Below, one piece after another: positions 41,677-62,276 of a stretch of DNA of 64,000 nt. Source of the stretch: a virus. Taxonomy: Duplodnaviria; Caudoviricetes. Both the position numbers and the translations under genes were made by a program. Location: positions 3,964 through 67,963 of IMG/VR virus record IMGVR_UViG_3300042891_001963. One strand, written 5' to 3'. Position 1 is the stretch's first letter, and every line of letters starts with the position of its first letter. The notes under the pieces are model-generated. The model saw nothing but the letters and a program-made list of their open reading frames with translations. It did no database searches and was not told the origin of the DNA.

Positions 41677-42042
41677 ATGTACCTAAACAATAAAGACTTA
41701 TACATTGAAGTTATCGTATCAAAAGCACAAGGCAAACTAACAAGAAATGCAGAGAAAATGTTAGAACTTCTTGCCAAAAAAACAATTAAAAAAATGAGAT
41801 ATTGGTCTAATGACGATAAGTTAGACTGTTACCAATCAGGACTATTAGATATGTTCCAAAACTGGTATAATTTCAACGAAGATAAATCAGTAAATGCGTT
41901 CGCATACTTTACCGAGGTATTCAAAAGAGGAATCGCTAAGGGTTATAACGAACTTTATAAAAAGAAAGGTGATAACGAACACTTAATCAAATTAATCTCA
42001 ATTGAAGGTTCAAATGATGGACAAGGACTTCACTCACTTTAA
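41677..42042 (+). CDS. gp55: Late-transcription sigma factor (gp55-like)
   Basis: YLNNKDLY...WYNFNEDKSVNAFAYFT. Confidence 0.8.
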   Translation: MYLNNKDLYIEVIVSKAQGKLTRNAEKMLELLAKKTIKKMRYWSNDDKLDCYQSGLLDMFQNWYNFNEDKSVNAFAYFTEVFKRGIAKGYNELYKKKGDNEHLIKLISIEGSNDGQGLHSL

Positions 42043-42178
42043 TATAAAAACATTTGATATAGTTATGACACCAGCATTTAGTGCTAGTATCATACCTATA
42101 ACTATATTTCCTTCAAGACAGAAAAGACGAAAGGAGAAAATTCAAAACATCTTTAAAATAAAAAATCCACTCAATTGA
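42014..42178 (+). CDS. Small ORF missing from the ORF track (54 aa) with RRKEKIQNIF tag
   Basis: MMDKDFTHFNIKTFDIVMTPAFSASIIPITIFPSRQKRRKEKIQNIFKIKNPLN; alternative start 42065. Confidence 0.4.
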   Translation: MMDKDFTHFNIKTFDIVMTPAFSASIIPITIFPSRQKRRKEKIQNIFKIKNPLN

Positions 42179-42188
42179 GTGGATTTTT
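42161..42188. terminator. Bidirectional terminator
   Basis: aaaaatccactcaattgagtggattttt. Confidence 0.8.
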
Positions 42189-42206
42189 ACTTTATAATCA
42201 TTTATG

Positions 42207-43301
42207 TTATGCTTCTGTTGAAACCTCAACTTCAGAATAAACTGTTTGTAACATTCTAAGTGATACTTGGTAAGGATCGCAGTTAGAAGCAGGTCTTCTA
42301 TCTTCAAAATAACCTTTGCCTTCAACAATTGCTTGAGCTGGAATTCTGATAGATGTATCTCTTGTAGAGAAACCGTAACTGAATTCATTGATACTTGATG
42401 TCTCATGAGCACCAGTTAATCTTTGGTCATTGTGTAATCCATAAACAGCAATGTGTTCTTTTTGGAATTTTTCTAATTTAACCATAGTTTCTTTGATGAT
42501 GTCTAATCCACCTTCTTCTCTCATTTCTTTAGTAGAGAAGTTAACGTGGCAACCTGTTCCGTTCCAGTCACCTTTTAATGGTTTAGGATGTAAAGAAACT
42601 TTAACATTGTACTTTTCAGCAACTCTTTGTAATAGATAACGAGAAACCCATAATTGGTCAGAACCTTCTAAAGCAGTAACCGGTCCAATTTGATACTCCC
42701 ATTGTCCTAAAAGAACTTCAGCGTTAATACCAGAGATATCTAAACCAATTTCCATACACATATTCATATGTTCTTCAACAATGTCTCTACCAACTACGTT
42801 ATCAGAGCCGATACCACAGTAGTAGTCACCTTGAGGTCTTGGTGATTTATTTGAATCTAAAGTAAATCCTAAAGGAATACCTTCGCCTGAACCAAATGGA
42901 ATCATTGGCTTGTGTGTAAGAGTGTATTCTTGTTCCCAGCCAAACCAAGGAAGTTCTAATTTGTCGCCAGAACTAACACCTAACTCATTCACTTTTTTAG
43001 CTAAAGCTCTTCTGTTATTTGTTTCATGTGTTGATCCGTCTGGATTAAGAACTTCACAGAAAACTAATTTGTTTGTTCCTTTTCTAAAAGGATCATAAGT
43101 TACAAATACAGGTCTTAGTAAACAGTCGGTATTTTTACCTTTACCTGCCTGAGCTTGTAATGTTGAACTTCCATCAAAAGACCATACTGGATAGTCAGCT
43201 GGATTCATTGAATTAATTTCCGAAGCAATTTTAGTTTTACTTCTAATTTGTTGAGGCTTAGAACCATCAAGCCAAATGTACTCTAATTTGGTATTATTCA
43301 T
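42207..43301 (-). CDS. glnII: Glutamine synthetase type II
   Basis: LEYIWLDG, WSFDGSST, EQEY, INAEV..GQWEYQ, HPKP..GDWNGTGCH, RLTGAHET, YFEDRRP. Confidence 0.93.
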   Translation of the reverse strand: MNNTKLEYIWLDGSKPQQIRSKTKIASEINSMNPADYPVWSFDGSSTLQAQAGKGKNTDCLLRPVFVTYDPFRKGTNKLVFCEVLNPDGSTHETNNRRALAKKVNELGVSSGDKLELPWFGWEQEYTLTHKPMIPFGSGEGIPLGFTLDSNKSPRPQGDYYCGIGSDNVVGRDIVEEHMNMCMEIGLDISGINAEVLLGQWEYQIGPVTALEGSDQLWVSRYLLQRVAEKYNVKVSLHPKPLKGDWNGTGCHVNFSTKEMREEGGLDIIKETMVKLEKFQKEHIAVYGLHNDQRLTGAHETSSINEFSYGFSTRDTSIRIPAQAIVEGKGYFEDRRPASNCDPYQVSLRMLQTVYSEVEVSTEA

Positions 43302-43383
43302 AAATGATTTGTTTTTTTTATTTTATATATTTTGCTAAACTTTGTTTAACATTATTACTAAAATAAATACAAAATTTAAAAAA

Positions 43384-43689
43384 ATGAATAAAGTATTTTT
43401 ACAACTTTGGGAAGAATCTAACACCGAAGAAGGATTTCTTAGTGATGGGTGTTCATTGCATATAAATTTAAAAGAAAGAGATATTTTTGTTACCTCTATT
43501 TATAGGGGAAGAGATATTTCATTAGTTCCTAATCAATATGATAGAATTGTTGGAGAATGTATAGAAGTTTTTGTAGAAGATAAGCTATATAATATGATAC
43601 TTAATGATAAGAGTGTTAAACTTCCTGAAAACTCTTTTCAAAATTTGTTAAAATTTGAAGAAATAATCTTTAACGAAGCCACTATATGA
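43384..43689 (+). CDS. Hypothetical protein
   Basis: ORF after a TAAACTTT-N15-TAAAAT motif. Confidence 0.7.
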   Translation: MNKVFLQLWEESNTEEGFLSDGCSLHINLKERDIFVTSIYRGRDISLVPNQYDRIVGECIEVFVEDKLYNMILNDKSVKLPENSFQNLLKFEEIIFNEATI

Positions 43690-44030
43690 TAATTCTATTT
43701 TATTTAATATCAATTTTATTTGCTCTGAATGAGATTTATTATGTTTTTAATAAATCAAAATTAGATACTAACTTTAAAAACTTAGATGTTAAATCATCAA
43801 CTAAGTTAGATATAGCTCATTACTTATTAAGAATTATGTTTTGGGTTTGGATGATTGTAGGTATTTGGTCTTCACAATCAAATCTGTTTATATTTCTAAC
43901 AATTTTACATTTATTTAGATTTCCATTTTACCATTTAAGTAGAAGACTTTATATAATTTGGACTAATATTCTACCAAGTATATCTTTTATCTTTATACTT
44001 ATAATACTGATTTTTAAAATTAAAGGTTAA
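43686..44030 (+). CDS. Small multi-pass membrane protein
   Basis: Three to four hydrophobic segments. Confidence 0.65.
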   Translation: MIILFYLISILFALNEIYYVFNKSKLDTNFKNLDVKSSTKLDIAHYLLRIMFWVWMIVGIWSSQSNLFIFLTILHLFRFPFYHLSRRLYIIWTNILPSISFIFILIILIFKIKG

Positions 44031-44547
44031 ACTTCTTTAGATGTTGTTCAGTGATAATGATGAACTCAAAACCTTTCTTATTACACCAGTTAATCATTGT
44101 TTCCCATTTGTTCTTATTCTTGTAAGCCATTTTAAGGTCATATTCAAAGTTTTTTAACTTCTTCATTCCATTCTCAGGAACGACCAGATTGCCTTCATTT
44201 AAGTCTTGAACCATCTTGTACTCTTTGAACGGTTTAACCTCTACAACAACTTGTTTAAGTACTCCTTCAGAGTTTCTCATCTCATAGTAGAAGTCAGGAT
44301 AATAACAATGTTCTTTTACTTTAGTATCACCGTTGTCAAAGTGTGTCATTTGATAAGGTATTCTCATACACTCAGCACCCCATTTAGTGATAGTTTTATT
44401 ATTATCTAACCAAGTCATTATCTTCTTTTCCCAAGAACTTCTATAGTAAACACCACCTTGAGTGTTTAATTTAATTACTTTGTCTTTGTATTTCGGTATA
44501 TAGTTACCTTGATTATAGTTGGCGTTATTTGGTTTTGAATTTAACAT
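44020..44547 (-). CDS. gp4: Head completion nuclease (gp4-like, TnsA fold)
   Basis: YRSSWE, W.AE...IPY, YYPDF, VEVKP, KW...C...F.IITE. Confidence 0.85.
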   Translation of the reverse strand: MLNSKPNNANYNQGNYIPKYKDKVIKLNTQGGVYYRSSWEKKIMTWLDNNKTITKWGAECMRIPYQMTHFDNGDTKVKEHCYYPDFYYEMRNSEGVLKQVVVEVKPFKEYKMVQDLNEGNLVVPENGMKKLKNFEYDLKMAYKNKNKWETMINWCNKKGFEFIIITEQHLKKFNL

Positions 44548-44591
44548 ACCTTGGATTAGTTTATTTTATATATAAAAGAAAACAGATTTCC

Positions 44592-45287
44592 ATGGGAGAA
44601 TTAGTAGATAGAATCGGTATTAGAATGTTGGTTGATGGTGATGGTTTAGCTGATAACTTCAAAAACAACTCACTATATTTTTATGAAAAATATCAAAAGT
44701 CTGATGATAAAGTAACTTCAGTTGATGTTAGTAGTATTCTACCCGGTGGTTTTTATCACTTTCACTATTTAGATGATTCTAATTGGATGATGTATTCACC
44801 TGTATTTGTTACTAATTTTAAAAAGATATCAAATCAAATAATAATATTTGGAGTTAATTTTAATTTTATACCGTTAGAAGTAAGAGCTTATTTATTTGAT
44901 AATTTTATGATAGAAGAAGATTTTGAAAAGGATAGATTACTAAAAGTTGATTATGAAGGTATGTATTCTGAATTAATTAAATATGGCTTTGAATATGCTT
45001 TAGTTGAATATAATGCTATTCAAATAAAATTAGTTCATAAAATAAGTGTAGAAACAGTACCAAGATTTTTAATTGCGGCTCATCCTAAGAATAAATATGA
45101 CCCTGGTAAGTTATTTGATATATGGAAAGCTAAGATAGGTGATAAGAGTAAACGAAATCAAGAGATAATGAAGTCTATGATAGATGACTTTTATGATGTG
45201 AGAGGTCAGATTAATGAAAAATATGTTTTACTCAAGGATCATATTAAAAGAATACAAAATAGTGCGAAAAAATATGGTGGTAAATAA
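44592..45287 (+). CDS. DNA end protector-like protein (gp2-like)
   Basis: PGGFYHFHY...P.F...GVNFNFIPLEVR; divergent from gp4. Confidence 0.55.
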   Translation: MGELVDRIGIRMLVDGDGLADNFKNNSLYFYEKYQKSDDKVTSVDVSSILPGGFYHFHYLDDSNWMMYSPVFVTNFKKISNQIIIFGVNFNFIPLEVRAYLFDNFMIEEDFEKDRLLKVDYEGMYSELIKYGFEYALVEYNAIQIKLVHKISVETVPRFLIAAHPKNKYDPGKLFDIWKAKIGDKSKRNQEIMKSMIDDFYDVRGQINEKYVLLKDHIKRIQNSAKKYGGK

Positions 45288-45320
45288 ATAATATATACAC
45301 TATAAAAATTATAATTCTAA

Positions 45321-45794
45321 ATGAAACATTTAAGAAAATTTGAAGAACTTGATTATTCTACATATATGAGTGCTGCTGATAAGTTAGCTTCTTATGGACA
45401 AACTGATAGAGCTAAAGAGATTAGATCTCATGCAGTTGATATGTCTAGAAAAGAAATTGATAGTATGACTTTTGGTATATTAGTTGGTAATGTTAGACCA
45501 TTTCCAGATGCTAAATTTACCAGCTTAGATATATTCAAGTCTGGTAGTGGTTGGATTATGAATTCTGTATTTCAATCAGGTAATAATACACATAAAGTAA
45601 CTTCATCTGTTTCTCCTACAGGAGATATAACCTGGATGGAAGGTAATAAATTTTTAGATAGAAAATCTGTTTTGAATTTTCAAAAAATGATAGTTAAACT
45701 GTGTGAATCACAAGATGATTTACAATCATTCTTATCAGAGAATGGATTAGCTCCAGAGAATTTGAAACCTGTTCTGAGAACGTTCTATGTATAA
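45321..45794 (+). CDS. Hypothetical protein with CTS-like N-terminus
   Basis: MKHLRKFEE. Confidence 0.7.
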   Translation: MKHLRKFEELDYSTYMSAADKLASYGQTDRAKEIRSHAVDMSRKEIDSMTFGILVGNVRPFPDAKFTSLDIFKSGSGWIMNSVFQSGNNTHKVTSSVSPTGDITWMEGNKFLDRKSVLNFQKMIVKLCESQDDLQSFLSENGLAPENLKPVLRTFYV

Positions 45795-45865
45795 TACTCT
45801 AAGTGAAACCTACAATAAAATGTAGGTTTTCTTTTTTAATAGTGTTTTGGAGGAAGATTAAAAAT

Positions 45866-45875
45866 TTAATATATA
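45866..45875 (+). promoter_or_regulatory. Putative late promoter of portal gene
   Basis: TTAATATATA. Confidence 0.65.
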
Positions 45876-45899
45876 AACGAAATACTTATTTTAAAATAA

Positions 45900-47603
45900 A
45901 TGGCATCTTATAATCAATTTAACGCTGGTTCTGGTCAAAATAATTTCACCTACACTAATAGTGCTGTTGAAAATAAAGGACTTTTTAATAGAATTTTAAG
46001 AGGTTTATCATCTTATGGTATGAACTATGATGATATGATTGTTAGAAATCAAGTTGGTATTGGTATCAATGAAGATCCATTTGCGGCTAGAGGAAATTCA
46101 ATGTATGACTTCTTTTCACAAAGAGCTGTAGCTTCTGTATTAAATAGAAAGTCAATTCCTTATTTAGATAAAGCATATGCTGATAAAAGAAGAATTCTAA
46201 GAGAGTATTCAATTAAAGATGAGATTAGAGATTTTGTTAGTTCTTTAGCAGATGAAAGTATTGTTTATAATGATGAAAGAGATTTCTGTTCACCTAAGCC
46301 ATTAGGTAATGATTATTCACAAGAGATTAAAGATAAGTATCAAGAGTATTTTGAAAAAATTTATAATAAGTTTGGATTCTCTGATAGTATCACGGCTTGG
46401 AATATGATGAAGGATTTCCTTATTGATGGATATATCGCTTTAGAAATTATCTATGATGATAAGAAAAAGAATATTATTGGTTTTAATAGATTAAGACCAG
46501 ATACTTTAGTTCCAGCATTTGAACCAACTATTGGTCACTTATGGATTCAGTTTCCTGAAGATCCTCAATTAAGAAGAATCTTCTTAGATTCTCAGCTAGT
46601 TTATATTTCATATTCTACTCAAAATGATTATTCAGAAACATCTTATGTAGAAGGTTTAATTAAACCTTATAACCAATTAAAAATTCTTGAGCAAACAAGA
46701 GTAATGTTTAACATTATTAATGCTACAGTTTATCAAAAGTTTACTATTCCTATTAAAGGTTTATCAAGACAAAGAGCTGAAGAACAAATTGGTCAATTAA
46801 TCAATGATTATTCAGAAGAAGTTGAATGGGATGATTCATTGGGTACATTAACTATTAATGGTGCTAAACACTTGCCTTATAACAAACAAATTTGGTTTCC
46901 TGAAGGAGATGCTGGTACACCAGCTATGGAATTAGTTTCACCTGAAGGACACAACTTAAATGAATCAGATATGTTGACTTGGTTCTACAATGCTCTAAAA
47001 AGAGCTTCTAAGATTCCTTTTCAACGTTTTGATAAAGAAAATGGTGGTGGTAACTTAATTAATGACTCGGCTGATATGACGAGAGATGAGATTAAATTCT
47101 ACAACTTTATTAATAGATTAAGAGCTAACTTTAAAGAACTTATTGTTAAGCCTTTGAAATTACAAATGTTAATTGAATTTCCTGAGTTAAAAGATGATGA
47201 GGTTTTAGTAAATCAAATTGATATTAACTTTAACTCTAATCAAGTATTTGAAGAGTGGAAAAAATTAAATAACTTAGCTAAGAAAGCCGAAATCTTTGGT
47301 ACATTAGTTGGTGTTATGAATGGTGAGAAACCTTACTTCCATATTGAGTACTTAATTGATAATGTATTTAAATTAACTCCAGAAGAAAAAGCTGAAAATC
47401 AGAAATACTGGGCTAAAGATGCTGCTGGTGTTGCCGCTGGTGGTGCTGAAGCCGGTGCCGCTGGTGGTGCTGAAGGTGGTGAAGGTGGTGACGCCGCGCC
47501 TGCTGAAGGTGGTGAAGCCGCGCCGGAAGCTCAAGCCGCACCTGAGGCACAAGCCGCCCCTGAAACTCCTCCTGCTGAAGGTGGTGAAGAATTTGAATTC
47601 TAA
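45900..47603 (+). CDS. gp20: Portal protein
   Basis: FLIDG, LIKPYNQLKILE, WFP, ASKIPFQRF, TRDEIKF..FINRLR. Confidence 0.92.
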   Translation: MASYNQFNAGSGQNNFTYTNSAVENKGLFNRILRGLSSYGMNYDDMIVRNQVGIGINEDPFAARGNSMYDFFSQRAVASVLNRKSIPYLDKAYADKRRILREYSIKDEIRDFVSSLADESIVYNDERDFCSPKPLGNDYSQEIKDKYQEYFEKIYNKFGFSDSITAWNMMKDFLIDGYIALEIIYDDKKKNIIGFNRLRPDTLVPAFEPTIGHLWIQFPEDPQLRRIFLDSQLVYISYSTQNDYSETSYVEGLIKPYNQLKILEQTRVMFNIINATVYQKFTIPIKGLSRQRAEEQIGQLINDYSEEVEWDDSLGTLTINGAKHLPYNKQIWFPEGDAGTPAMELVSPEGHNLNESDMLTWFYNALKRASKIPFQRFDKENGGGNLINDSADMTRDEIKFYNFINRLRANFKELIVKPLKLQMLIEFPELKDDEVLVNQIDINFNSNQVFEEWKKLNNLAKKAEIFGTLVGVMNGEKPYFHIEYLIDNVFKLTPEEKAENQKYWAKDAAGVAAGGAEAGAAGGAEGGEGGDAAPAEGGEAAPEAQAAPEAQAAPETPPAEGGEEFEF

Positions 47604-47619
47604 AACTTACTATAAAAAG

Positions 47620-47649
47620 AAAAACCTCTCAAATTTGAGAGGTTTTTTT
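47620..47649. terminator. Bidirectional terminator
   Basis: aaaaacctctcaaatttgagaggttttt. Confidence 0.8.
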
Positions 47650-48097
47650 ATGCTGTCATTTTTGGATATATGAAGTAAAAAGATTTGACTTGATTATCTA
47701 CTATATTCTGTCTGAGTTCTAGTTCAAGTCCTGATTCAATTAGTTCTCTTATAATCTTACCCCATTCGGTAGTCATTGTTTTAATTGTTATTTCTAATTC
47801 TAAAACATTATTTCCTTTGAGTATAAACTTCATAAACTTTATGACTGATGATGCTTTTTTAAGCACTTCAAAGTCGTCTGTGTCATCAACAAAAACATTT
47901 ACATACATAACACCGTGAGCATGACCTGATATATCTAAAGTAAACTCAATCTTTTTATCTTCTAAAATAGAGTTTAGTTTAATCTCTCTTTTATATTGAG
48001 ACCAATTATTAAAATTAGATAATAATTTCTCGTACTGTTCCAAGGTATTATTATCTAATTCAATATTAAAAGATTTTGTTACACTATGACCATCCAT
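47648..48097 (-). CDS. Degenerate prohead-protease-like protein with KREIKLNSIL tag
   Basis: Aligns by eye to resident gp21 (GV.Y, AS.II, T.WGK...L...G) but lacks DHP and SSR. Confidence 0.55.
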   Translation of the reverse strand: MDGHSVTKSFNIELDNNTLEQYEKLLSNFNNWSQYKREIKLNSILEDKKIEFTLDISGHAHGVMYVNVFVDDTDDFEVLKKASSVIKFMKFILKGNNVLELEITIKTMTTEWGKIIRELIESGLELELRQNIVDNQVKSFYFIYPKMTA

Positions 48098-49975
48098 TTA
48101 CAATAAAGTAAAATCTATTTGTTTTCTTTCTAAGTCTACTGACTTAACTACAACTTTAAGAGGATCTCCTAATCTGATTTTATCACCATTTTCACTTGTT
48201 ATGGTGTAGTTGTTTGTATCAGCTGACCATTTACCTTCAAGTGATTGATATCTAACCATACCTTCACATTTACTTTCAACCAATTCAACATACATACCCC
48301 AATCAGTTACACCAGAAACGATGCCATCAAATACTTTTCCAATCTTATCTAAAAGATATTCAGCTTGTTTGTATTTAATTGAATCTCTTTGAGCTTTAGC
48401 CGCTACTAATTCTCTAGCAGAACACCATTTAGCTTGTTCTTCAATCTTACCAGGATTACCTTGAGATTTCTTATCTAAGAAATCAAGTAAAATTCTATGT
48501 GTGATTAAATCAGGATATCTACGAATAGGTGAAGTAAAGTGAGAATAGTGAGTAAATCCTAAACCATAGTGACCTATGTTCTTGATTGTATAAGTAGCTT
48601 TAGACATACATCTAGTAACTAAGGTTTCAATCATATTTTCCTCAGGAGTTTCTTTAATCTCTTTTAATAAATTGTTTAAAGTCTTTTTAATCTCAGTGGA
48701 ATCATCATATATTTCTATATCATATCCAAAAGTTTTACAAACACCAACTAAAGCATTTAACTTTTCCATATTTGGAGTATCGTGAACTCTATACACATTT
48801 GCCCAACTAGCATCTGATAAAGTTTTAGCAACTGACTTATTAGCCAATAACATAAACTCTTCAATTAACTTGTTAGCTTCTTTTTGTTCTTTGAAATAAA
48901 CACCAATTGGTTTCTTATTATCTGGTGCTAATTTGAATCTAACTTCAATACCACCCATCTCAATAGAACCTTCTTTGATTCTTTTCTTTCTAATCTTTTT
49001 TGCTAAAGTATCAAGTAATCTAATTTCAGTTGAATAATCACCATCACTTCCTTCAATAATTTCTTGAGCTTCTTCATAAGCATATCTTCTATCAGAGTGA
49101 ATAACTGTTTTACCTTGCCAAGTATTTAAGATATTACCATCTGAGTCTAAAGTAAAGATAACAGAGAAAGCCAATCTATCTTCGTGTGGTTTCAATGAAC
49201 ATATACCATTACTTAAACGTTCTGGTAACATTGGTACACATCTATCAACTAAATACACTGATGTGGCTCTTTTGAAAGCTTCATCATCTAATTTAGTTCC
49301 TGGTTTAACATAGTGACCTACGTCAGCAATGTGAACTCCTACTTCAATTTTATTATTAACAATATTGACTGAGAGAGCATCATCAAAATCTTTAGCATCA
49401 ACTGGGTCAATAGTTAAAGTAGTGATACCTCTCATATCTTTACGAGATTTAATTTCTTTTTCACTAATAACTTCGGGTACTAAGAAAGATTCATTAATAA
49501 CATCTTGTGGAAATTCAATAGGCAATCCATACTCAATCATAATTGAGTTCATTTCTGTGTTATTATCTCCAGAATCTCCTAAAACTCTTGTGATTTTTCC
49601 TTGTGGTGATTTTGAGTCTTCCCACTTTACTAATTCTACTACAACCTTTTGGTCGTGTTCTGCTTTTAATCCACCTTTAATATAAAAGTCAACAGGTACT
49701 TTATTACTATCCGGAACAACAAATATTGTTTTCTTTCCTATTTGTACTCTACCGACATACTCAGTCTTAAATCTTGAAACAACTTCAATGACTTTTCCTT
49801 CTAGTTTTCTTTCAGCTTGAAATATTTGAACTTTTACTTTATCTAAGTGTAATGAGTTAGCTGTGTGTTTCTTGTAAATGAAGATTTCTATATCTTCTAC
49901 TGCTAATGATGCGTTACCGTTTGTTGAGAACTCAATCTGACCTTCGTAAACATCACCTTCTTTTAATTTTATCAT
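48098..49975 (-). CDS. rnr: Ribonuclease R (RNB family)
   Basis: TIDPVDAKDFDDALS, HIADV, EEFMLLAN, HFTSPIRRYPDL, C-terminal S1. Confidence 0.95.
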   Translation of the reverse strand: MIKLKEGDVYEGQIEFSTNGNASLAVEDIEIFIYKKHTANSLHLDKVKVQIFQAERKLEGKVIEVVSRFKTEYVGRVQIGKKTIFVVPDSNKVPVDFYIKGGLKAEHDQKVVVELVKWEDSKSPQGKITRVLGDSGDNNTEMNSIMIEYGLPIEFPQDVINESFLVPEVISEKEIKSRKDMRGITTLTIDPVDAKDFDDALSVNIVNNKIEVGVHIADVGHYVKPGTKLDDEAFKRATSVYLVDRCVPMLPERLSNGICSLKPHEDRLAFSVIFTLDSDGNILNTWQGKTVIHSDRRYAYEEAQEIIEGSDGDYSTEIRLLDTLAKKIRKKRIKEGSIEMGGIEVRFKLAPDNKKPIGVYFKEQKEANKLIEEFMLLANKSVAKTLSDASWANVYRVHDTPNMEKLNALVGVCKTFGYDIEIYDDSTEIKKTLNNLLKEIKETPEENMIETLVTRCMSKATYTIKNIGHYGLGFTHYSHFTSPIRRYPDLITHRILLDFLDKKSQGNPGKIEEQAKWCSARELVAAKAQRDSIKYKQAEYLLDKIGKVFDGIVSGVTDWGMYVELVESKCEGMVRYQSLEGKWSADTNNYTITSENGDKIRLGDPLKVVVKSVDLERKQIDFTLL

Positions 49976-49990
49976 ATATGAGTATTCTAT

Positions 49991-50386
49991 TTAAGAAACC
50001 TCATTTTGTTTATCTCTTTTTGATATATTATCTACTCCATACTTTTCAATGAGTGTATTCTTCATTTTACTAAGCACTTTTTTATTCTGTATTGGATAGT
50101 CAACTCCAAAGTTTTTTCTTAAAGTTTCTTTTCTTTTTGATTCAGAACATTTTCTACAATAATATTCTCCAAAGTTGTTATCATATTTAACATAGTTTTT
50201 GAATATTACTTCCTTTTCAACACCACATCCATCACATTTACATTTTATCTTATAATGTGATCCTTTTGACATTAGCTCAATTGGTATTTTAATAATCTCT
50301 CCAATTGCTACATCATATCCTAAATCATCATAGTACTGATAATTTGATTCATTAATTTTTATTTCTATCTCTCTTGTAAGGATCAT
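49991..50386 (-). CDS. Zn-ribbon/NUMOD-like homing-endonuclease accessory protein; no nuclease domain
   Basis: CDGC...CRKC, KETLRKNFGVDYP / KNTLIEKYGVDN repeats. Confidence 0.6.
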   Translation of the reverse strand: MILTREIEIKINESNYQYYDDLGYDVAIGEIIKIPIELMSKGSHYKIKCKCDGCGVEKEVIFKNYVKYDNNFGEYYCRKCSESKRKETLRKNFGVDYPIQNKKVLSKMKNTLIEKYGVDNISKRDKQNEVS

Positions 50387-50557
50387 AAAAAACCGCTCAA
50401 TTTCTTTTATTTATTAATTTTTGCCTCTCTCCTCCATGATTTTATACATGTTATAGCCGGTTTGAAACTCCACACCACTGTAAACAATCCACGTTGAAAA
50501 AAAGGCGGTTTCTTACTGATTATATATACTCTATATTTTAAAAAATAATAAACTTAA

Positions 50558-52684: not shown

Positions 52685-52727
52685 TCTATAAAAAATCCAC
52701 ACTTGAAATTATTGAAATTTCAAAGGC

Positions 52728-52736
52728 TAATATATA
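52728..52736 (+). promoter_or_regulatory. Putative late promoter of major capsid gene
   Basis: TAATATATA. Confidence 0.65.
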
Positions 52737-52765
52737 GATAAACACAAAAAAAAATTAAAAAAATT

Positions 52766-54436: not shown

Positions 54437-54456
54437 TAGTTTTATTGTAAATATTG

Positions 54457-54483
54457 AAAAAAGACCCTTTATGGGTCTTTTTT
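54457..54483 (+). terminator. Intrinsic terminator after MCP
   Basis: aaaaagaccc...gggtcttttt. Confidence 0.8.
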
Positions 54484-54516
54484 CTTTTTAAACAATTTCT
54501 AATTAATATATACAGT

Positions 54517-55221
54517 ATGAAATATTTACTAATTGAAAATAGTGGTGATGATTCTGAAAATCGTGAATACGGAGATATAATTGTTAAATACTTTGATGAT
54601 TTGACTGATGTTTATTCACATATCTGTAATGAACTAATATATGAGGATTTAGACATAGAAGATTTTAAGAATGATCCTTATAGTAATGTTGAAGAAAGAG
54701 TTGAAGAACATGGATCTAGTTATTATATTTTTGAAGATGAGAATGAATTGATATCATTAAAAATAGGTAATATAAAAGATGGTGATTGGGATAAATTCAC
54801 AGATTTTTGTCTAGGTTTTATAAAAGAAAATAAAATAATGAACTATAAATCATTTAACGAATCTAAAAAAGAAAAATTTCCTAACATACAGAAGTTAGAA
54901 ATAGAAGGATTTATTGTTTATGTTGGTAAAGATGCTAAATCTAACGATCATTTGACTTTTAATGTTGCTGACAAAGAAGATATTTGGATGCATGTTAAAG
55001 GTGTTCCTGGTAGTCACGTTGTTATTCGTGTTAGAGAGAATTTACCAACAGAAACTGTTATTAAATCTGCTGCGGAATTGGCTAAAAAGAATAGTAAAGC
55101 ATCAAAAGATGATAAAGCAACTGTTGTTTATTGTCAAAGTAGATTTGTTAAGAAAGAATCAGGTATGAATGATGGTCAGGTTAAAGTGGATTATACAAAT
55201 TCCTATCAAATTGTAGTTTAA
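54517..55221 (+). CDS. Acidic domain fused to NFACT-R (DUF814; RqcH/Rqc2 C-terminal) RNA-binding domain
   Basis: VGKDAKSNDHLTF...DIWMHVKGVPGSHVVI...AAELA; internal MNYKSFNES at 54838. Confidence 0.8.
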   Translation: MKYLLIENSGDDSENREYGDIIVKYFDDLTDVYSHICNELIYEDLDIEDFKNDPYSNVEERVEEHGSSYYIFEDENELISLKIGNIKDGDWDKFTDFCLGFIKENKIMNYKSFNESKKEKFPNIQKLEIEGFIVYVGKDAKSNDHLTFNVADKEDIWMHVKGVPGSHVVIRVRENLPTETVIKSAAELAKKNSKASKDDKATVVYCQSRFVKKESGMNDGQVKVDYTNSYQIVV

Positions 55222-55257
55222 TATTTAATATATAATACATAATAAAATAAATTAAAA

Positions 55258-56631
55258 ATGGCAGATAATAAAGAACCTATAAGAATTAAATTTTCTGAAG
55301 AACTTCATGATTTATTAAAAGTTTTAGAAGATGAGAATAGCTATATAGCATTTGAAATGCTTTGGTTGAACGAGCCTAATTCTAAATATCACAATGGTCT
55401 AGGAATTAGTGATGTTAATATATCTAAAACAAAATCTTGTTTAGATGTTACGTCTACAATTAATGGTGTTGTTGATGGTAAAGTTCACCCTATGAAAATA
55501 GAAAACTTTCTTAAATTTTACTTTAAGAATTACTTTCAAACTTCTGATATTCAAGAATTCATTGAACAGTATAATATATTAGCAGGTGGTGGTTCGGTTG
55601 AAAGTATTGCTGTTAATAGAATTACACCAGAACCTTTTAGTTACAATCCTAAAGATGTTAGAAGTACATTTATTTCATTGGTTACTAAGACATATCCTCA
55701 CGGACATGAAGAAGAAGTAATGGCTTTTATGCCTAAATTAGAAAAAGATATTGTAGGTAACTATTATAAAATCATTGGTGAGAATCCAACAACTATGTTT
55801 ACATCTCACTTAGATACTGCTGATAGAAAACAAGGTACTACTAAACTTCTTTCTAAGAAAGATGAAAATGGTGATGAAATTATTTATACTGATGGTTCTA
55901 CTATATTAGGTGCTGATGATAAGTCAGGTGTTGCTGTTATGCTTTATATGATGGCTCATAATGTACCAGGTCTTTATTACTTCTTTATGGGAGAAGAAAG
56001 AGGTGGTATTGGTTCAGGTTTATTATCTTCGGTTTATGAAAAAGTAGAATATGTTAAGAATATTAAGAGATGTGTTTCTTTTGATAGAAGAGATGTTAAA
56101 TCTGTCATTACTTCACAATTAGGTAGAACTTGTTGTTCTGATGAATTTGGAACTGCTTTGGCTAAACAATATAATGCAAATGGTCTTAATTTATCATTAG
56201 ATCCTACAGGTATATACACAGATTCTGCTTCATTTTTAGAACAAATTGCTGAATGTACTAACATATCAGTTGGTTATTATAATGAACATACTGGTAAAGA
56301 AAGACAAAATATTAACTTTCTGGAAAGACTTGCTAAGGCTAGTGTTCAAGTTAATTGGAATTCATTACCAACAGTTAGAAAAGTAGGAATTGATGAAGAA
56401 ACTATTAGAAAATATGGTAAGTTAATTAATGACTTAAAAGCAACACCATTTGGTATTGATATTAAAATAGCATCTGATAGAGCTACTACTTTTATTCAAT
56501 GTGATTTAGAAGAAGGTTATATTGATGAGACTTATGAAGCTTTAACAACACTACAATTCTTATTGAATAAACACAAAGTAAGTCAAAAAGTATATTTTGA
56601 TGGAGAATACATAAAAATAGATTTATTATAA
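55258..56631 (+). CDS. M28/M20-family metallopeptidase
   Basis: SHLDT, LGADDKSG, GEERGGIG, SFDR, TD, NEH. Confidence 0.8.
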   Translation: MADNKEPIRIKFSEELHDLLKVLEDENSYIAFEMLWLNEPNSKYHNGLGISDVNISKTKSCLDVTSTINGVVDGKVHPMKIENFLKFYFKNYFQTSDIQEFIEQYNILAGGGSVESIAVNRITPEPFSYNPKDVRSTFISLVTKTYPHGHEEEVMAFMPKLEKDIVGNYYKIIGENPTTMFTSHLDTADRKQGTTKLLSKKDENGDEIIYTDGSTILGADDKSGVAVMLYMMAHNVPGLYYFFMGEERGGIGSGLLSSVYEKVEYVKNIKRCVSFDRRDVKSVITSQLGRTCCSDEFGTALAKQYNANGLNLSLDPTGIYTDSASFLEQIAECTNISVGYYNEHTGKERQNINFLERLAKASVQVNWNSLPTVRKVGIDEETIRKYGKLINDLKATPFGIDIKIASDRATTFIQCDLEEGYIDETYEALTTLQFLLNKHKVSQKVYFDGEYIKIDLL

Positions 56632-57083
56632 TGAAACTTAAAAAATTTAACCAACTATTTGAAAGAGAAGGTTTTGATGATATATATGAGCCTTTTGATG
56701 ATGATGATTATAATGATTATCGTTATGATAAAGAATATAAAGGTGAAGATGAGGATGATTCAGATGATGATATGTCACATCTTTGTTATCTTTTAAGATC
56801 TATGTTTAATAATAATAATATTGATGTTAATGTTGAAAATAGTGGATTGGATTTATCTATTACTGCTCAATTTGCCAGAAGAGAATCACTTAGTGATATC
56901 GTTAGAGTATTTGAAGTTATTAAGAAAATTAAAAAAGATATTTTAGCTCAATACTCTTCGTCTTATGAAATGTGGGAAACTAAATCTGGTTCACCTATGA
57001 TTACATTTGAATTTATGTTAGAAGATGATGATGATAAAGATGGTGTAGTTACAGATGATAAGGATGATGATTATCCTTGGTAA
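56631..57083 (+). CDS. Acidic protein with CTS-like N-terminus
   Basis: MKLKKFNQLFE. Confidence 0.7.
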   Translation: MKLKKFNQLFEREGFDDIYEPFDDDDYNDYRYDKEYKGEDEDDSDDDMSHLCYLLRSMFNNNNIDVNVENSGLDLSITAQFARRESLSDIVRVFEVIKKIKKDILAQYSSSYEMWETKSGSPMITFEFMLEDDDDKDGVVTDDKDDDYPW

Positions 57084-57103
57084 TTTTTAAAATTTCTAAA
57101 CTT

Positions 57104-57135
57104 TTTGCTATTTCAGAATATTATATATATATTTG
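57104..57135 (+). promoter_or_regulatory. Bacteroidota-type promoter of tmRNA
   Basis: TTTG-N20-TATATTTG. Confidence 0.7.
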
Positions 57136-57154
57136 TAGAATAATAAACACACTT

Positions 57155-57533
57155 GGGGATGTTTTAGAATTGATTTGCGGAGTGGTGGTGATTATGCGGG
57201 TATCGGGTTGTCGTATGACCGATTAATAAATTAGATGGTAAAGTCGTAAATGGCAAAACAAATGAAGTAGCTAGCAATGAAGATTTAGTATTTGCGCTAC
57301 AAAACAACATGATCTTGGTAGAAGATCTAGCAACTGTCTAACAACAGTTACTATCAAAAAATTCTCCAACTTGTTTCACACAAGAATAAAATAGTGAAAT
57401 GGTTTTTTGTTACTTATTAGAGTTTCTCAAAAAAAGTAAAAAGTTTGTAAGTTTATAAAAATTTACTACGCCTGTGAATGAATAATTATTAACAACCGAA
57501 AAAGACACGTTGGGCAGTACAACGTCATCTCCA
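57155..57533 (+). ncRNA. ssrA: tmRNA (one-piece)
   Basis: Acceptor stem GGGGATG/CATCTCC-A with G3.U pair; T-arm ACGTTG-GGCAGTA-CAACGT; tag ORF 57252-57341. Confidence 0.88.
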
Positions 57534-57539
57534 CAAGAA

Positions 57540-57562
57540 CAAAGACCAGTAATGGTCTTTTG
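57540..57562 (+). terminator. Hairpin after tmRNA
   Basis: caaaagacca-gtaa-tggtcttttg. Confidence 0.65.
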
Positions 57563-57608
57563 TTATTTTAAAGAGGTAAACTTTATTAATTTGATTGATA
57601 TAATAACT

Positions 57609-58127
57609 ATGATTGATAAATTTGAAGGTCGTTATAGATTCTTATCCAATTTCTATCCGTGTAAGATAGAACACCAAGGTATTAAATACCCGTCAGTTGA
57701 GAACTTTTATGTGGCTATGAAAGTAAATGACCAACAATTAATTAATGGTACTTACTATACGCCAGGTGATTTTCGTGAAATGATTGCTAGAATTACCAAT
57801 CCTGCTGAGGTTAAAAAACTTGGTTCTAAAGTTAAATTAAGAACGGGTTGGGATGAAAAGAAATTAGAAGTTATGAATTGGGCTGTACGTCAAAAATTCA
57901 AAGAAGAAACTTTAGCTGAATTATTATTATCTACTGAAGACCAAGAGTTAATTGAAGGTACGTGGTGGCATGATAAATTTTGGGGTATATGTGTTTGTAC
58001 AAAATGTGCTGGTAAAGGTGAGAATCATTTAGGTAAGATTCTTATGGAAGTAAGAGAAGAATTAAAATTATCAAATCAAAAACCTTCAATTCAAGATATA
58101 ATAAAAGACAAAAATAAATTAAATTAA
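57609..58127 (+). CDS. NADAR (YbiA-like) family protein
   Basis: FLSNFY, SVENFY, KKLG, W, QKF, LLST, LIEG, D.FWG, GENHLGKILMEVR. Confidence 0.9.
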   Translation: MIDKFEGRYRFLSNFYPCKIEHQGIKYPSVENFYVAMKVNDQQLINGTYYTPGDFREMIARITNPAEVKKLGSKVKLRTGWDEKKLEVMNWAVRQKFKEETLAELLLSTEDQELIEGTWWHDKFWGICVCTKCAGKGENHLGKILMEVREELKLSNQKPSIQDIIKDKNKLN

Positions 58128-58129
58128 TA

Positions 58130-59113
58130 ATGAGTGTAATTTCATATTTCGGAGGTAAGTCCTCAAATGTATTCATTGAGTTTATTAACTCAAAAATCCC
58201 TAAAGATGGTTCAATCAAAACCTACTTAGAACCATTCTCTGGCTCAATGGGAACGTATATGGACGACCCAAACTTAAAGTTTGATGTAGTTGTCTATAAC
58301 GATAAAAATCGTCACCAGGTGAATCTATATAAGTGCGCTTCTCAACCAGAAGAATTTGTTAAGTATTTAGAAGCTTTGAAAAGAACTTTACTTCATACAG
58401 ATGAAACTGATCCATTGAAGAAGTGGGATTTCTATAAAGAGATTTACAAAAGATATATTAAGAATGATTTCTTAGATAATATGGATTTTGAGATTGGTGA
58501 TTTCAAAAAAGCGGCTATTTATGCTTTCTTAATTACATCAGCTCACAATTCGGTTTATCCTCGTGGTGCTGGTTTCAATGGTTATAAGAAAGATAAAGAT
58601 CGTTTGAAATTAGAGGTTCTTATTGACAAGTTGAAAAAGAACAAATACACAGCTAAGTTATCTACTATTACTGACTTCTATAATATTGACTTTGAGGAAT
58701 TGATTAATCAATATGATTCTGAAGATACTTATTTGTATTTGGATCCTCCTTATCACAGACCTGATGAGAATGGTGATGATGATGCTAAGAGATTATCTTG
58801 GTATGGTGCTGATAAAGAAGGAATGTTTGGACCTGCTTCACATAGAAGATTGTTAGATTTGATTAAGAAATCTAAATCTCGTTGGTCATTATCATATTAC
58901 TATTTCCCTTTGTTAGAGGAATTGTTACCAAGAGACCAATACATTTGGACTGAAAAAGAAGTATTTAGAAGTTCAGCTCAAGGTGGTAATAACTCTGAAG
59001 GTAAAGGTGAACAAGCTAAAGGTGTAGAGTTATTGATTTTAAATTACGATCCAGTTACTGGTAAAAAATTAAACATTCAAGATGGAGTATCCGCTACCGA
59101 GACAGAGATATAA
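58130..59113 (+). CDS. dam: Dam-like (D12 class) DNA adenine methyltransferase
   Basis: YFGGKS, EPFSG, YND, YLDPPY. Confidence 0.85.
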   Translation: MSVISYFGGKSSNVFIEFINSKIPKDGSIKTYLEPFSGSMGTYMDDPNLKFDVVVYNDKNRHQVNLYKCASQPEEFVKYLEALKRTLLHTDETDPLKKWDFYKEIYKRYIKNDFLDNMDFEIGDFKKAAIYAFLITSAHNSVYPRGAGFNGYKKDKDRLKLEVLIDKLKKNKYTAKLSTITDFYNIDFEELINQYDSEDTYLYLDPPYHRPDENGDDDAKRLSWYGADKEGMFGPASHRRLLDLIKKSKSRWSLSYYYFPLLEELLPRDQYIWTEKEVFRSSAQGGNNSEGKGEQAKGVELLILNYDPVTGKKLNIQDGVSATETEI

Positions 59114-59282
59114 GCATTACAAAGGTGGTACTTATGAAGTAATTACTTTAGCCACTCATACAGAAACCGGAGAAAAGTTAGTAGTCTATAAGTCTATCAA
59201 CTTTGGCTCTATTTATGTTAGACCATTAGATATTTGGAACTCAAATTCTGAACTTGGTCATAAAAGATTTGAATTAATATAA
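59082..59282 (+). CDS. DUF1653 family protein
   Basis: YKHYKGGTYEV...HTETGEKLVVY...YVRP...RF. Confidence 0.85.
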   Translation: MEYPLPRQRYKHYKGGTYEVITLATHTETGEKLVVYKSINFGSIYVRPLDIWNSNSELGHKRFELI

Positions 59283-59506
59283 TGGCAATAGCTTGTAATC
59301 CTAGTGTATTTAATATAAATAGCTCATCAAACTCAACCGCAATTAATGTTGATGTTGATGGTTGTACAGTTGTTAGTAAGTTAGTTCTATTAGATGAGAA
59401 GACTGGTAACAAATGGCAAATTAAAATATCAGATGGTGAGTTAATAGCTGAGCCATTAGAATTAGAAGATAAAAGAGAATATAAACTAAATAAAATACTA
59501 AAATGA
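59282..59506 (+). CDS. Small protein with C-terminal KREYKLNKIL tag
   Basis: 74-aa ORF, TAATG coupling. Confidence 0.65.
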   Translation: MAIACNPSVFNINSSSNSTAINVDVDGCTVVSKLVLLDEKTGNKWQIKISDGELIAEPLELEDKREYKLNKILK

Positions 59507-60051
59507 AAAAGTATAAAGTTTCCATTTATGGATATGGAGCAGAAGTAACAATTGGTTCTGTAAATGAAGAACAGAAAGAAATTCTTAATAACAATGATAA
59601 AGAGTTATGGGAAATTGTGACTAATGATTTAGAAGATTGGGGTGGTTGGTATGAAGTTGATGACCAATATCATCGTTGGGGAGCTTCAGGTACATTTACT
59701 ATTCTTATTGAAGATGAGAATGGAGAAGAAGTATATAAAATTGATTCTGATAATTTAAGTGAATTTGATACTGATGATTTTCAGTTAGTAGATTATGAAT
59801 ATACTGAAATTGATGAGTCTAAAGACTTATTAATGTGTGCTTCATTTGAAAAGGGTGGCTTCTTTGAAGGTGATATTGAAACTGAAGAGTTTGATATTAC
59901 TAAACTTAAAATCACTATTGATGAAGAGATTGGTATTGAAGAATACTACTTTGGAGATATTGTAGCTGGTGTTTACTATGATGATGAAGAAGTAGATAAC
60001 TACGGTGGTAGTACTAACGGTAAGTCATTTGATGTTACTAAGAACTTTTAA
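59503..60051 (+). CDS. Highly acidic hypothetical protein
   Basis: 182 aa, D/E-rich. Confidence 0.75.
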   Translation: MKKYKVSIYGYGAEVTIGSVNEEQKEILNNNDKELWEIVTNDLEDWGGWYEVDDQYHRWGASGTFTILIEDENGEEVYKIDSDNLSEFDTDDFQLVDYEYTEIDESKDLLMCASFEKGGFFEGDIETEEFDITKLKITIDEEIGIEEYYFGDIVAGVYYDDEEVDNYGGSTNGKSFDVTKNF

Positions 60052-60055
60052 AAAG

Positions 60056-60085
60056 AAAAAACCTCAGAGAAATCTGAGGTTTTTT
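60056..60085. terminator. Bidirectional terminator
   Basis: aaaaacctcaga-gaaa-tctgaggttttt. Confidence 0.8.
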
Positions 60086-60089
60086 ATGT

Positions 60090-60569
60090 TTACCATCCAA
60101 TAAGTTCATCAAGTGCTTCCTGTATAGCCGCTGAATATGCCATGTCGTGATCACTATCACCTTCATCATATCCTATTTCATCAGCCACTCTTTTTAATTC
60201 TTGATTAAAAGTATCAATAGATTTTCTGAACTCTTCTTTAAGAGTTTTATATGATTCTGTTTTTTGAATTTTATCCATTATATCGTAGTCAATATGTGAT
60301 TCATTGACAATTGATTCTTCTAATTCCTCAATAGCATCAATCTTATCTTTAATCTCAGCCGGACTTAAATCATCCATCTTACGAGTTGTGTTATTGAACT
60401 TATATCTTGAGTTAGCCATATTCTTTTGTTGGTCATCAGTATTAGGCTTGTTTTGTCTATCCATTTTTTTCAATTCTTCTTTTTCAGCATTAGGGTTAGC
60501 TGAGAAGTCTTTGAAGTTAACTACTTTTCTATTTACATTAAATGTAGGTTGATTATCTTTATAAGTCAT
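60090..60569 (-). CDS. Hypothetical protein
   Basis: 159 aa; late motif upstream; KVVNFKDF and IVNES motifs. Confidence 0.7.
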   Translation of the reverse strand: MTYKDNQPTFNVNRKVVNFKDFSANPNAEKEELKKMDRQNKPNTDDQQKNMANSRYKFNNTTRKMDDLSPAEIKDKIDAIEELEESIVNESHIDYDIMDKIQKTESYKTLKEEFRKSIDTFNQELKRVADEIGYDEGDSDHDMAYSAAIQEALDELIGW

Positions 60570-60692
60570 TTTATAGAATTACTTTTTTGTATATATTAAT
60601 TATCAAATCTCATTTATCTCATTTTAGAGAGTCGGTTTTTTATATATACCTATGATAAAAACAAAAATCAAAAAAGAGTGTATAATAAAGAT

Positions 60693-62033
60693 ATGAGTAA
60701 ATTAGTAACGTTAAACGGAAATAACGACCAAGAGCTTCTAAGTTCAATTTTTGATAATGAAATAATTGTATTTGAAGATATTCAAGGGTCTAAAATATGG
60801 ATAAATTGGGATGGTAAAGAATTTACTATTAAACCAAAATCAATGAGTAGTGAAAAACTTAATCTTGTTGATTTGGCTATCCAAAACTATTATAATCCAG
60901 GTATTAAATATTTAGAATCATTGGATGTTAGAATTAAATCACTATTGAATAAAAAATGGTGGTTTTGTTTTGAGTACTTTCCAGATGAGCAACCAGCTAA
61001 TATTGAATACACAAGAGTTCCTAAGAATCATTTGGTTTTAACTGCTATTAATAAAGGTGGTAAGTATGACTTTAGTGTTGAGGAATTAGATGAGTATGCT
61101 AGATTATTTGATGTTGATATGTTACCGATTGTTTTCCAAGGTAAATTAACTGAAAGAATGATTGAGGCTATTAAATACTTTATTAATACAAGTGAAGAAG
61201 ACTTAGAATATGTATTTGGTGAAAAGTCATTTGCTTTTTTCTTTTATAGAATATTAAATCCAAGTTCTACTAACTCATTTCTAATGAAAGATGAAGATTA
61301 TCAATCAAATCTTGAAAAACTTATTGTAAGAACTAAAAATGGAGATATTTCGTTTGAGATATTAAACCCTTTATATAAAAGAATAAGTGATAGTAACTCA
61401 ACAGATTTTGTTGAAATATACACACTTATCTTAGTTAACTTCTTAAATTTCTGTCAATCATTTAACTTAGATGAAATTAAATTAAAAGGTGAGAAAAGAG
61501 ATGAAGTTTACATTTATTTAATGTCAAAATTATTTAATGTTTATGTTTCTGAAGTTAAACAAGATTTATTAGATTTTGACTTTATAGTTCCTGAGTTCTT
61601 TGATAAAGAAAAGTTCAAAATTAATACAGAGTTAATTCCTAATAAATTGACTAAAGATTATATTAAAGAGTCAGATAAGTTAGAATATATTTTCAAAGTT
61701 ATTTTAGGCTCATTTAACAAGAAAAGAAAGAAAGCTATTGGTGTATTCACTGATAATACTGTAATTCTATTTAATACTTTTGTTAGTGATATTAATAATT
61801 ATATTGAGAAGTATCTTAATAAGGTTCATGAAGTTGAATTAACAAGAGCCGGATTACTTGACTTTGGTGATTTCTTTGAGATTCAATATGATCAAGATGG
61901 TGAAGGTGAAGTTTACCCTGATGTTTACTCGGAGTTTGAAAAAGGAACACCTGAACAAAAGAAGAAAAAAGGTAAAGGTGGTAAAGGATTACCAATGCCT
62001 GATGAAGAACCATCTAAAACCCCTACTAAGTAA
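60693..62033 (+). CDS. RNA-ligase-fold protein lacking motif-I lysine
   Basis: VFEDIQGSKI vs EKxDGxN; FEYF motif III; P.VFQG. Confidence 0.5.
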   Translation: MSKLVTLNGNNDQELLSSIFDNEIIVFEDIQGSKIWINWDGKEFTIKPKSMSSEKLNLVDLAIQNYYNPGIKYLESLDVRIKSLLNKKWWFCFEYFPDEQPANIEYTRVPKNHLVLTAINKGGKYDFSVEELDEYARLFDVDMLPIVFQGKLTERMIEAIKYFINTSEEDLEYVFGEKSFAFFFYRILNPSSTNSFLMKDEDYQSNLEKLIVRTKNGDISFEILNPLYKRISDSNSTDFVEIYTLILVNFLNFCQSFNLDEIKLKGEKRDEVYIYLMSKLFNVYVSEVKQDLLDFDFIVPEFFDKEKFKINTELIPNKLTKDYIKESDKLEYIFKVILGSFNKKRKKAIGVFTDNTVILFNTFVSDINNYIEKYLNKVHEVELTRAGLLDFGDFFEIQYDQDGEGEVYPDVYSEFEKGTPEQKKKKGKGGKGLPMPDEEPSKTPTK

Positions 62034-62245
62034 TGAATTCAATTGATGTTAGTATTAGAAGTGTTCAAGTTGAAGCTAAAACAAGACCGATTAAAGCTAC
62101 TTGGACTCGTGAATTGATAGCTGATTTAGATAGTTATCATAATATTGATATTGAAAAGGAACTTTCTCATCTTTTGAAAGAAGAGCTTCGTAAACAACGA
62201 GCTTCTAGTAGAAAAAAATCAATCAATAAAATCTTCCAAAATTAA
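62033..62245 (+). CDS. 70-aa fragment of a gp23-type capsid protein with C-terminal tag
   Basis: VEAKTRPIKATWTRELIADLDSYHNIDIEKELS matches gp23 EAKSRQLKA.YS.ELAQDL...H..D...ELS. Confidence 0.7.
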   Translation: MNSIDVSIRSVQVEAKTRPIKATWTRELIADLDSYHNIDIEKELSHLLKEELRKQRASSRKKSINKIFQN

Positions 62246-62276
62246 GAACATAAACTTGGAATTTCATATAATTTAT

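Follow-up and report, generated by a model that had tools for sequence, protein, structure and literature searches.

A shared basic amphipathic tail on small proteins of a huge-phage lineage, some of which carry segments resembling virion proteins

MicroProteins are small proteins that come from the interaction region of a larger protein and act on the complex of their parent. The capsid-targeting signal of T4 is N-terminal and is removed by gp21, and the known C-terminal docking tails include the PIP or clamp-binding tails of gp43, gp33 and gp55, the ClpX-binding tail of SspB, and degrons of the ssrA and MuA type. Capsid proteins and prohead proteases are documented triggers of bacterial immunity, as in the reports on CapRel (PMC9712102) and type I CBASS (10.1101/2023.05.21.541620; PMC12991175). 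Here we analyse a 64-kb window (the whole stretch of DNA studied, with a G+C content of about 30%) out of a 67,963-bp virus contig, IMG/VR record IMGVR_UViG_3300042891_001963. Four small open reading frames (ORFs) in this window, named below by their lengths of 70, 74, 149 and 54 amino acids (aa), share a short basic peptide, which we call the tail. The remainder of each protein is called its head, and the head of the 70-aa protein is a piece of the T4-type major capsid protein (MCP), gp23. The coordinates of these and all other features are collected in Table 1.

The four ORFs were picked out by a sequence-only reading of the window, which summarized their common peptide as R-[EK]-x-[KS]-[LI]-[NQ]-x-I-[LF]. 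Six-frame translation of the contig contains exactly four matches to this pattern, all at the places that had been claimed and all within these ORFs. The a-priori expectation for the window is 0.003, but setting it against the four observed matches is circular and uninformative because the pattern was written from those same matches. We also computed a look-elsewhere score, the summed BLOSUM62 similarity to the best three other proteins, for each of the 20,643 9-mer seeds in the window proteome. The four tail 9-mers rank 623rd, 623rd, 1380th and 3540th, and in 12 shuffled proteomes a mean of 664 seeds score equally well. Nine-residue segments with a partner identical at seven of nine positions number 66 in the real proteome versus a mean of 45 in the 12 shuffles. 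Therefore, the window by itself does not establish the tag.

Two near-complete relatives supply that evidence: G001 (385,333 bp, estimated completeness 95%) and G002 (476,236 bp, estimated completeness 97%). Applied unchanged, the pattern has four matches in G001 and nine in G002, where shuffles average 0.08 and 0.10, respectively, and none of 200 shuffles reaches the observed numbers. The reversed pattern, used as a control, has no match in G001 and one in G002. Comparison with shuffled proteomes had been proposed as a check on the tail, and by this pattern, fixed beforehand, the tail is enriched about 50-90-fold in the two relatives. Of the nine matches in G002, seven lie in proteins that have no orthologue among the four window ORFs. 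The control set drawn from other T4-type phages (72 loci, 872 kb, G+C 33%) contains no match.

A relaxed form of the pattern gives a similar picture and shows where the tail lies. It has 13 matches in G001, nine of them within 10 aa of the C-terminal end (shuffle mean about 1.2), and 11 in G002, nine of them C-terminal (shuffle mean about 0.3). The 72 loci of other T4-type phages yield three relaxed matches, none C-terminal, and the reversed relaxed pattern yields one match in G001 (not C-terminal) and one in G002 (C-terminal). When three sets of crude gene calls were scanned, 3/74, 9/494 and 15/674 genes had the tail within their last 19 aa, compared with 0.06-0.17 expected from shuffles and none within the first 19 aa. 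All but one of these crudely called genes encode 150 aa or fewer. The tail is followed by 0-8 variable residues before the stop codon, and in some proteins it is internal.

No conservation was found in the DNA flanking 35 tails. The codons of the RKKSINKIF tail vary synonymously (AGA/CGT, TCA/TCT, ATC/ATA/ATT and TTC/TTT) within an invariant peptide, and with the unconserved flanks this indicates selection on the protein and not on the DNA. Taken together, the enrichment in the relatives, the absence from the control loci and the unconserved flanks establish that the tail is real, lineage-specific, selected as protein and mostly C-terminal. All four window ORFs are conserved and under purifying selection, with a ratio of nonsynonymous to synonymous substitution (dN/dS) below 1 in 41 of 42 pairs over the four families and values of 0.1-0.75. 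The flavour RE-x-K-[IL]-N-x-IL is also found at the end of many further small proteins in which no piece of a larger protein can be recognised.

A second shared peptide, distinct from the C-terminal tail, was observed at the N-terminus of many small ORFs. This peptide, MK[HY][LI][KR]x[FY][EN], tops the unbiased 9-mer ranking.

The 70-aa protein had been read as a gp23 fragment, and homology searches bear this out. It scores 48.1 bits on Pfam Gp23 (PF07068; cut-off 24.4 bits, E = 1.4e-12) and matches phrog_138 with E = 1.3e-11, and a profile of its family matches T4 gp23 residues 254-298 in the PDB (E = 1.5e-4 to 3.9e-4). The similarity covers positions 131-182 of the 376 in the Gp23 profile, a segment short of the full-length domain. 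One hundred homologues were identified among 101 candidates, each 42-70 aa long. The RKKSINKIF tail is invariant in 27 aligned family members, an invariance that may be inflated by distant members found via shared 5-residue words but with which the closer members agree, and the remainder of the protein drops to about 55% identity. One further locus of the family reads RKNSINKIF. Values of dN/dS are 0.21-0.75 in 20 of 21 pairs, the last pair having a dS of just 0.04.

BLASTP detected no similarity between the 70-aa protein and the resident MCP (E = 6.9). A profile made from 54 MCPs of the ordinary T4 type scores the 70-aa protein at 52.6 bits versus 35.1 bits for the whole resident MCP. In tblastn, the best matches are to MCP genes of phages, including Flavobacterium phages. 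Judged by sequence, the head resembles ordinary gp23 more closely than it resembles the resident MCP. A homologue occupies the same position in all eight loci compared (L001-L008); in the window, the gene before it ends in a stop that overlaps the start of the mini-gene. A gene of about 411 aa follows immediately 3' in seven of the eight loci, with two genes intervening in L002. This neighbour keeps its adjacency to the mini-gene also in loci with a different gene on the upstream side. Searches of Pfam, PHROG and the PDB gave no match for it, and by eye it contains motifs that we presume to be polymerase-A-like.

The head of the 54-aa protein probably copies a segment of the prohead protease, corresponding to residues 135-167 of the resident gp21. 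When the tail-masked G001 orthologue was searched with phmmer against 746 large ORFs, three protease-scaffold proteins were returned (E = 2.5e-4, 3.9e-4 and 2.9e-3). The window protein matches the resident gp21 weakly by BLASTP (E = 0.016), and hhalign aligned it with gp21 residues 135-167 at E = 1.4e-4 with a probability of just 53%; it has no Pfam or PHROG match of its own. The resident protease-scaffold fusion is probably the parent type of this head. An earlier likeness to the C-terminal strand of the tail sheath was not upheld, as the tail-masked search matched protease-scaffold proteins only and not the resident sheath.

The orthologues of the 54-aa protein in G001 and G002 differ by in-frame indels and conserve the tail fully, with dN/dS of 0.23-0.33. 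A G+C-rich terminator-like hairpin followed by a T run, at about 42165-42188, overlaps the final codons and sits between the convergent gp55-like and glutamine synthetase genes. The stretch from 42002 to 42178 was also considered as non-coding 3' sequence with a terminator, and this was ruled out by the orthologues, the in-frame indels and the dN/dS values.

The remaining two ORFs are also conserved as genes, with 244 homologues of the 74-aa protein (dN/dS 0.10-0.35 in 15 of 15 pairs) and 306 of the 149-aa protein (dN/dS 0.39-0.51). An AlphaFold2 (AF2) model of the 74-aa protein has beta strands followed by a helix at residues 64-73. With this model, of pLDDT 60.7, Foldseek found no PDB match at E<=0.001 (best E = 0.93), and no Pfam match was obtained. 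A proposed tail-fibre hairpin in its head was not confirmed, the single PHROG tail-fibre match being weak (E = 0.024). In the 149-aa family the tail-like segment is the best-conserved part, with K36, R37, I39, K40, L41, L45 and E46 invariant between members only 34-38% identical. The suggestion that this protein is a dead gp21 protease found no support: there was no protease match in Pfam or PHROG, and BLASTP against the resident gp21 gave a best E of 0.98. Its AF2 model was unusable (pLDDT 38.2), and its membership of the tagged set is uncertain. Of the four head assignments made by the sequence-only reading, that of gp23 stands and the other three are wrong or unsupported.

Contigs from metatranscriptome libraries, representing relatives about 90% identical, span the 74-aa and 70-aa mini-ORFs (window 59200-59987 and 61768-62336). 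They possibly reflect DNA carry-over and were not counted as expression.

Heads homologous to virion proteins also occur on tailed ORFs in the relatives. Besides its full-length MCP gene, G001 has five ORFs that are MCP fragments covering different parts of the protein (MCP profile, E = 1e-16 to 5e-4). Two of these were checked against Pfam; one passes and the other reaches 23.9 bits against a cut-off of 24.4. The strict tail is present in three of the five, for which P = 2e-7 given 13 tailed proteins among 4,288 ORFs, and a fourth carries RRMNSINKIF. In one MCP-fragment ORF the tail lies within a 23-residue insertion. In G001, three overlapping tagged mini-ORFs stand in tandem, and their pieces match MCP (Pfam, E = 0.01), the prohead protease (phrog_207, E = 4.9e-4) and the portal (Pfam, E = 0.0087; phrog_213, E = 0.0094, with matching positions). 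This tandem set lies among dCMP-deaminase-like and NusG-like genes, both named by eye. A sheath-like tagged piece matches the resident sheath with E = 0.002-0.004; tblastn with this mini-ORF found no annotated sheath. The earlier claim of varied heads on one tail, some of them virion pieces, is thus borne out for capsid, protease, portal and sheath, and falls short in that the same tail also ends zinc-ribbon-like and other small proteins.

We read these genes as modular mini-proteins that combine a mimic head with a common docking helix, and we judge the case for this reading to be evenly poised. In this lineage, a helix that is short, basic and amphipathic, R-[KE]-x-[KS]-[IL]-x-x-[IL]-[FLY], would serve as a portable module in a few per cent of the genes, nearly all of which encode small proteins; it is usually placed 0-8 residues before the stop and is sometimes internal. 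In the flavour RK-x-K-I-x-K-[IL]-F, the helix would be joined to stand-alone 35-60-residue copies of segments of morphogenesis proteins, exemplified in the window by the gp23 piece of the 70-aa protein and probably by the protease piece of the 54-aa protein. The 74-aa ORF carries the RE-x-K-L-N-x-I-L flavour on its beta-rich head. Each head, as a molecular mimic resembling a microProtein, would engage the usual binder of its segment, whether parent, assembly partner or host sensor, and the common helix would dock all heads onto one putative reader. A narrower form of this idea, which we consider doubtful, is a decoy or adaptor library, in which the segment mini-proteins would deliver segment-binding proteins via the docking helix to a single effector and so serve in counter-defence or in interference between phages. 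Such a library could be aimed at immune sensors with which the host detects virion proteins, or at the assembly proteins of rival T4-type phages.

Several points weigh against mimic heads on a docking helix. In the window alone, the four motifs are indistinguishable from chance. Six of the ten G001 mini-ORFs scanned have no relevant family match in Pfam or PHROG, and several of the head assignments are weak single-sequence matches (E about 0.009 for the portal piece and 0.01 for one MCP piece). Since no larger parent can be recognised for many tailed proteins, the function of the tail need not concern mimicry. The heads are also of mixed likeness, some resembling canonical T4-type proteins and others the resident ones. 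Because of this mixed origin no single target fits, and the set would be neither purely directed against competitors nor purely self-regulating.

Further heads that had been named by eye, as a DNA polymerase, a terminase Walker A region, a DnaB-like helicase and a tail fibre, likewise lend the mimic reading no help: they were not confirmed and are not used as evidence. Pfam searches of the genomes scored resident genes only, and a tblastn search of 50,697 phage records brought up no annotated match for these heads. The family-B DNA polymerase match in G002 (85954-86436) has one in-frame TAA.

Among the other explanations, two have been largely refuted by the data. One holds that the tail is a chance motif of a proteome rich in K, I, N and L, seen on spurious or decaying ORFs that are gene debris. 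The modest ranks of the window seeds, with hundreds of equally good sets in shuffles, agree with this, as do the shortness of the 54-aa ORF, its overlap with the 3' end of the neighbouring gene and the hairpin in which it terminates. Such debris would hardly account for a fixed pattern enriched many-fold in two other genomes and absent from control loci, for matches concentrated at C-termini, or for four conserved ORFs with dN/dS below 1, in-frame indels and hundreds of homologues, and we find it scarcely credible. The same slight credence is given to a short mobile or regulatory DNA repeat that was inserted into genes and is translated there; the A-rich DNA of the tails and the in-frame insertion in two heads suit it, and the unconserved flanks and the synonymous codon differences that leave the amino acids intact speak against it.

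Four further proposals accept the tail as a protein module and give it another purpose. A capsid-loading signal, which would bind the procapsid interior or the scaffold and thereby bring tagged proteins into the particle for later injection, has precedents in the scaffold C-termini of P22 and herpesviruses and in the cargo-loading peptides of encapsulins. In a phage with an HK97-fold capsid, such a role would suit an amphipathic helix found at the C-terminus of many small proteins that are otherwise unrelated. We nevertheless think it unlikely: tagged genes are scattered among non-structural genes instead of clustering in a late module, the tail is internal in some proteins, and the separate shared N-terminal peptide in the same genome is more like the T4 capsid-targeting sequence. 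Equally unlikely, in our judgement, is a degron or protease-adaptor handle that gives the small proteins a short, timed life, as do the ssrA tag, MuA-type tails and the SspB tail. The near-C-terminal position and basic-hydrophobic make-up of the tail and the ClpP encoded by G002 (E = 1.8e-55) favour a degron, but the 0-8 variable residues after the tail leave the free C-terminus unconserved, which argues against recognition of that end, and G001 has tails yet no ClpP. Less probable still is a sliding-clamp-binding (PIP-like) peptide of the kind found on gp43, gp33 and gp55 of T4 or RB69. The tail presumably resembles such peptides in its hydrophobic i, i+3, i+4 spacing after basic residues and in being C-terminal, and the phage has a gp55-like gene, but no clamp of gp45 or beta type was detected at E<=1 (PF09116, PF02916 and PF00712 against G000, G001 and G002), a search of limited sensitivity that allows for a diverged or host clamp. 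On a par with the clamp peptide is a membrane-targeting helix like the C-terminus of MinD, which we take the short, basic, amphipathic C-terminal tail to resemble; against it, the polar residues S63 and N65 are invariant across the aligned 70-aa family, which suggests a specific protein contact over general amphipathicity.

The window belongs to a huge phage genome and carries a T4-type head and tail module; crude gene calling gave 70 genes. Its resident MCP is strongly diverged from ordinary T4-type gp23. Two uncultured-phage records contain frames similar to it, with 73.1% identity in the record of 634,780 bp and 71.6% in that of 642,428 bp. PMC7162821 assigns genomes larger than 634 kb to the 'Mahaphage' clade, with Bacteroidetes as predicted hosts. 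The match of the resident protease-scaffold fusion to Pfam Peptidase_S77 (E = 3e-4) lies under the family cut-off. The scaffold part of this fusion is rich in repeats, including 14-residue ones, and its final 27 residues are identical across G000, G001 and G002 except at one D/E position; the scaffold C-terminus, VTAIMERFKNI, has a hydrophobic spacing unlike that of the tail. Four auxiliary genes (glutamine-synthetase-like, RNase R-type, NADAR and Dam-type) sit within or beside the head module. Between the two relatives compared, ClpP is absent from G001 and present in G002.

Table 1. Positions of the tailed ORFs and of other features in the window (unless another genome or locus is named)
Feature	Coordinates	Strand	Remarks
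70-aa mini-gene	62033-62245	+	Residues 1-52 gp23-like head; residues 60-68 RKKSINKIF tail (62210-62236)
74-aa mini-gene	59282-59506	+	Beta-rich head; KREYKLNKILK tail (59474-59500) at extreme C-terminus
149-aa gene	47648-48097	-	Internal tail-like helix KREIKLNSIL, residues 36-45 (47963-47989), then domain of about 100 aa
54-aa mini-gene	42014-42178	+	58 aa from TTG at 42002; tail RKEKIQNIF at 42128-42154
Three overlapping tagged mini-ORFs in tandem	G001 342285-342811 (L107 2285-2811)	-	MCP, protease and portal pieces
Portal	45900-47603		Pfam Portal_T4, E = 5e-58
Resident prohead protease-scaffold fusion, 708 aa	50558-52684	+	phrog_207, E = 6.5e-32
Resident MCP, 556 aa	52766-54436	+	Pfam Gp23, E = 1.4e-29
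Tail sheath	20723-24589		phrog_34521, E = 1.2e-94
Gene of about 411 aa	62256-63512		Probable start ATG near 62277
Glutamine-synthetase-like ORF	42207-43301	-	Named by eye from translation
RNase R-type exoribonuclease	48098-49975	-	RNB, E = 4e-109
NADAR domain protein	57510-58127	+
Dam-type methyltransferase	58130-59113	+
ORFs with MK[HY][LI][KR]x[FY][EN] start	37366-37764(-), 45321-45794(+), 15042-15446(+), 16225-16809(+), 35721-36311(+)
Further ORFs with MK[HY][LI][KR]x[FY][EN] start	L081 1246-1584(-), 1615-1893(-)
ClpP gene	G002 440856-441380 (L134)		E = 1.8e-55

Should the tail prove to be an address or docking label, one could predict from sequence alone which small proteins of huge phages have a fate in common, and the tail peptide would be a direct bait for its reader. 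The tagged pieces of capsid, protease, portal and sheath, if they act as mimics, would provide a naturally occurring case of fragment inhibitors or decoys encoded by a phage. Virion proteins are known triggers of bacterial immunity (CapRel, type I CBASS). The hypothesis is testable with a handful of proteins of 50-75 residues. Tagged virion-protein fragments are not described in the literature searched, and term searches within PMC7824862 and PMC7162821 found no mention of them.

These mini-genes can be compared with several known systems. The parents of the heads, capsid protein and prohead protease, are the same kinds of protein as the triggers of CapRel and type I CBASS. Over residues 1-52, the 70-aa protein shares homology with residues 254-298 of T4 gp23 (gp23/gp24 family PF07068; PDB 6uzc, 7vs5 and 5vf3), but the protein spans just 52 of the 376 positions in the profile, is unable to form the HK97 fold and adds an unrelated basic tail. 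In placing one short peptide on unrelated proteins of an HK97 system, the mini-genes resemble the T4 capsid-targeting sequence, scaffold C-termini and encapsulin cargo peptides; unlike the T4 sequence, their tail is C-terminal or internal. As in the known C-terminal docking tails, which bring many clients to one hub, the element is a short helix or tail at the C-terminus. It differs from clamp tails in that no clamp gene was detected (PF09116, PF02916 and PF00712; E<=1), and from ssrA/ClpX degrons in that the extreme C-terminus is unconserved and ClpP is encoded by just one of the two near-complete relatives. The mini-genes are like microProteins in being small, stand-alone, conserved copies of just one segment of a larger multimeric protein. 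They depart from them in that the gp23 piece resembles ordinary gp23 more than its resident parent, that binding to the parent is putative, and that many parents (capsid, protease, portal and sheath) share one added tail.

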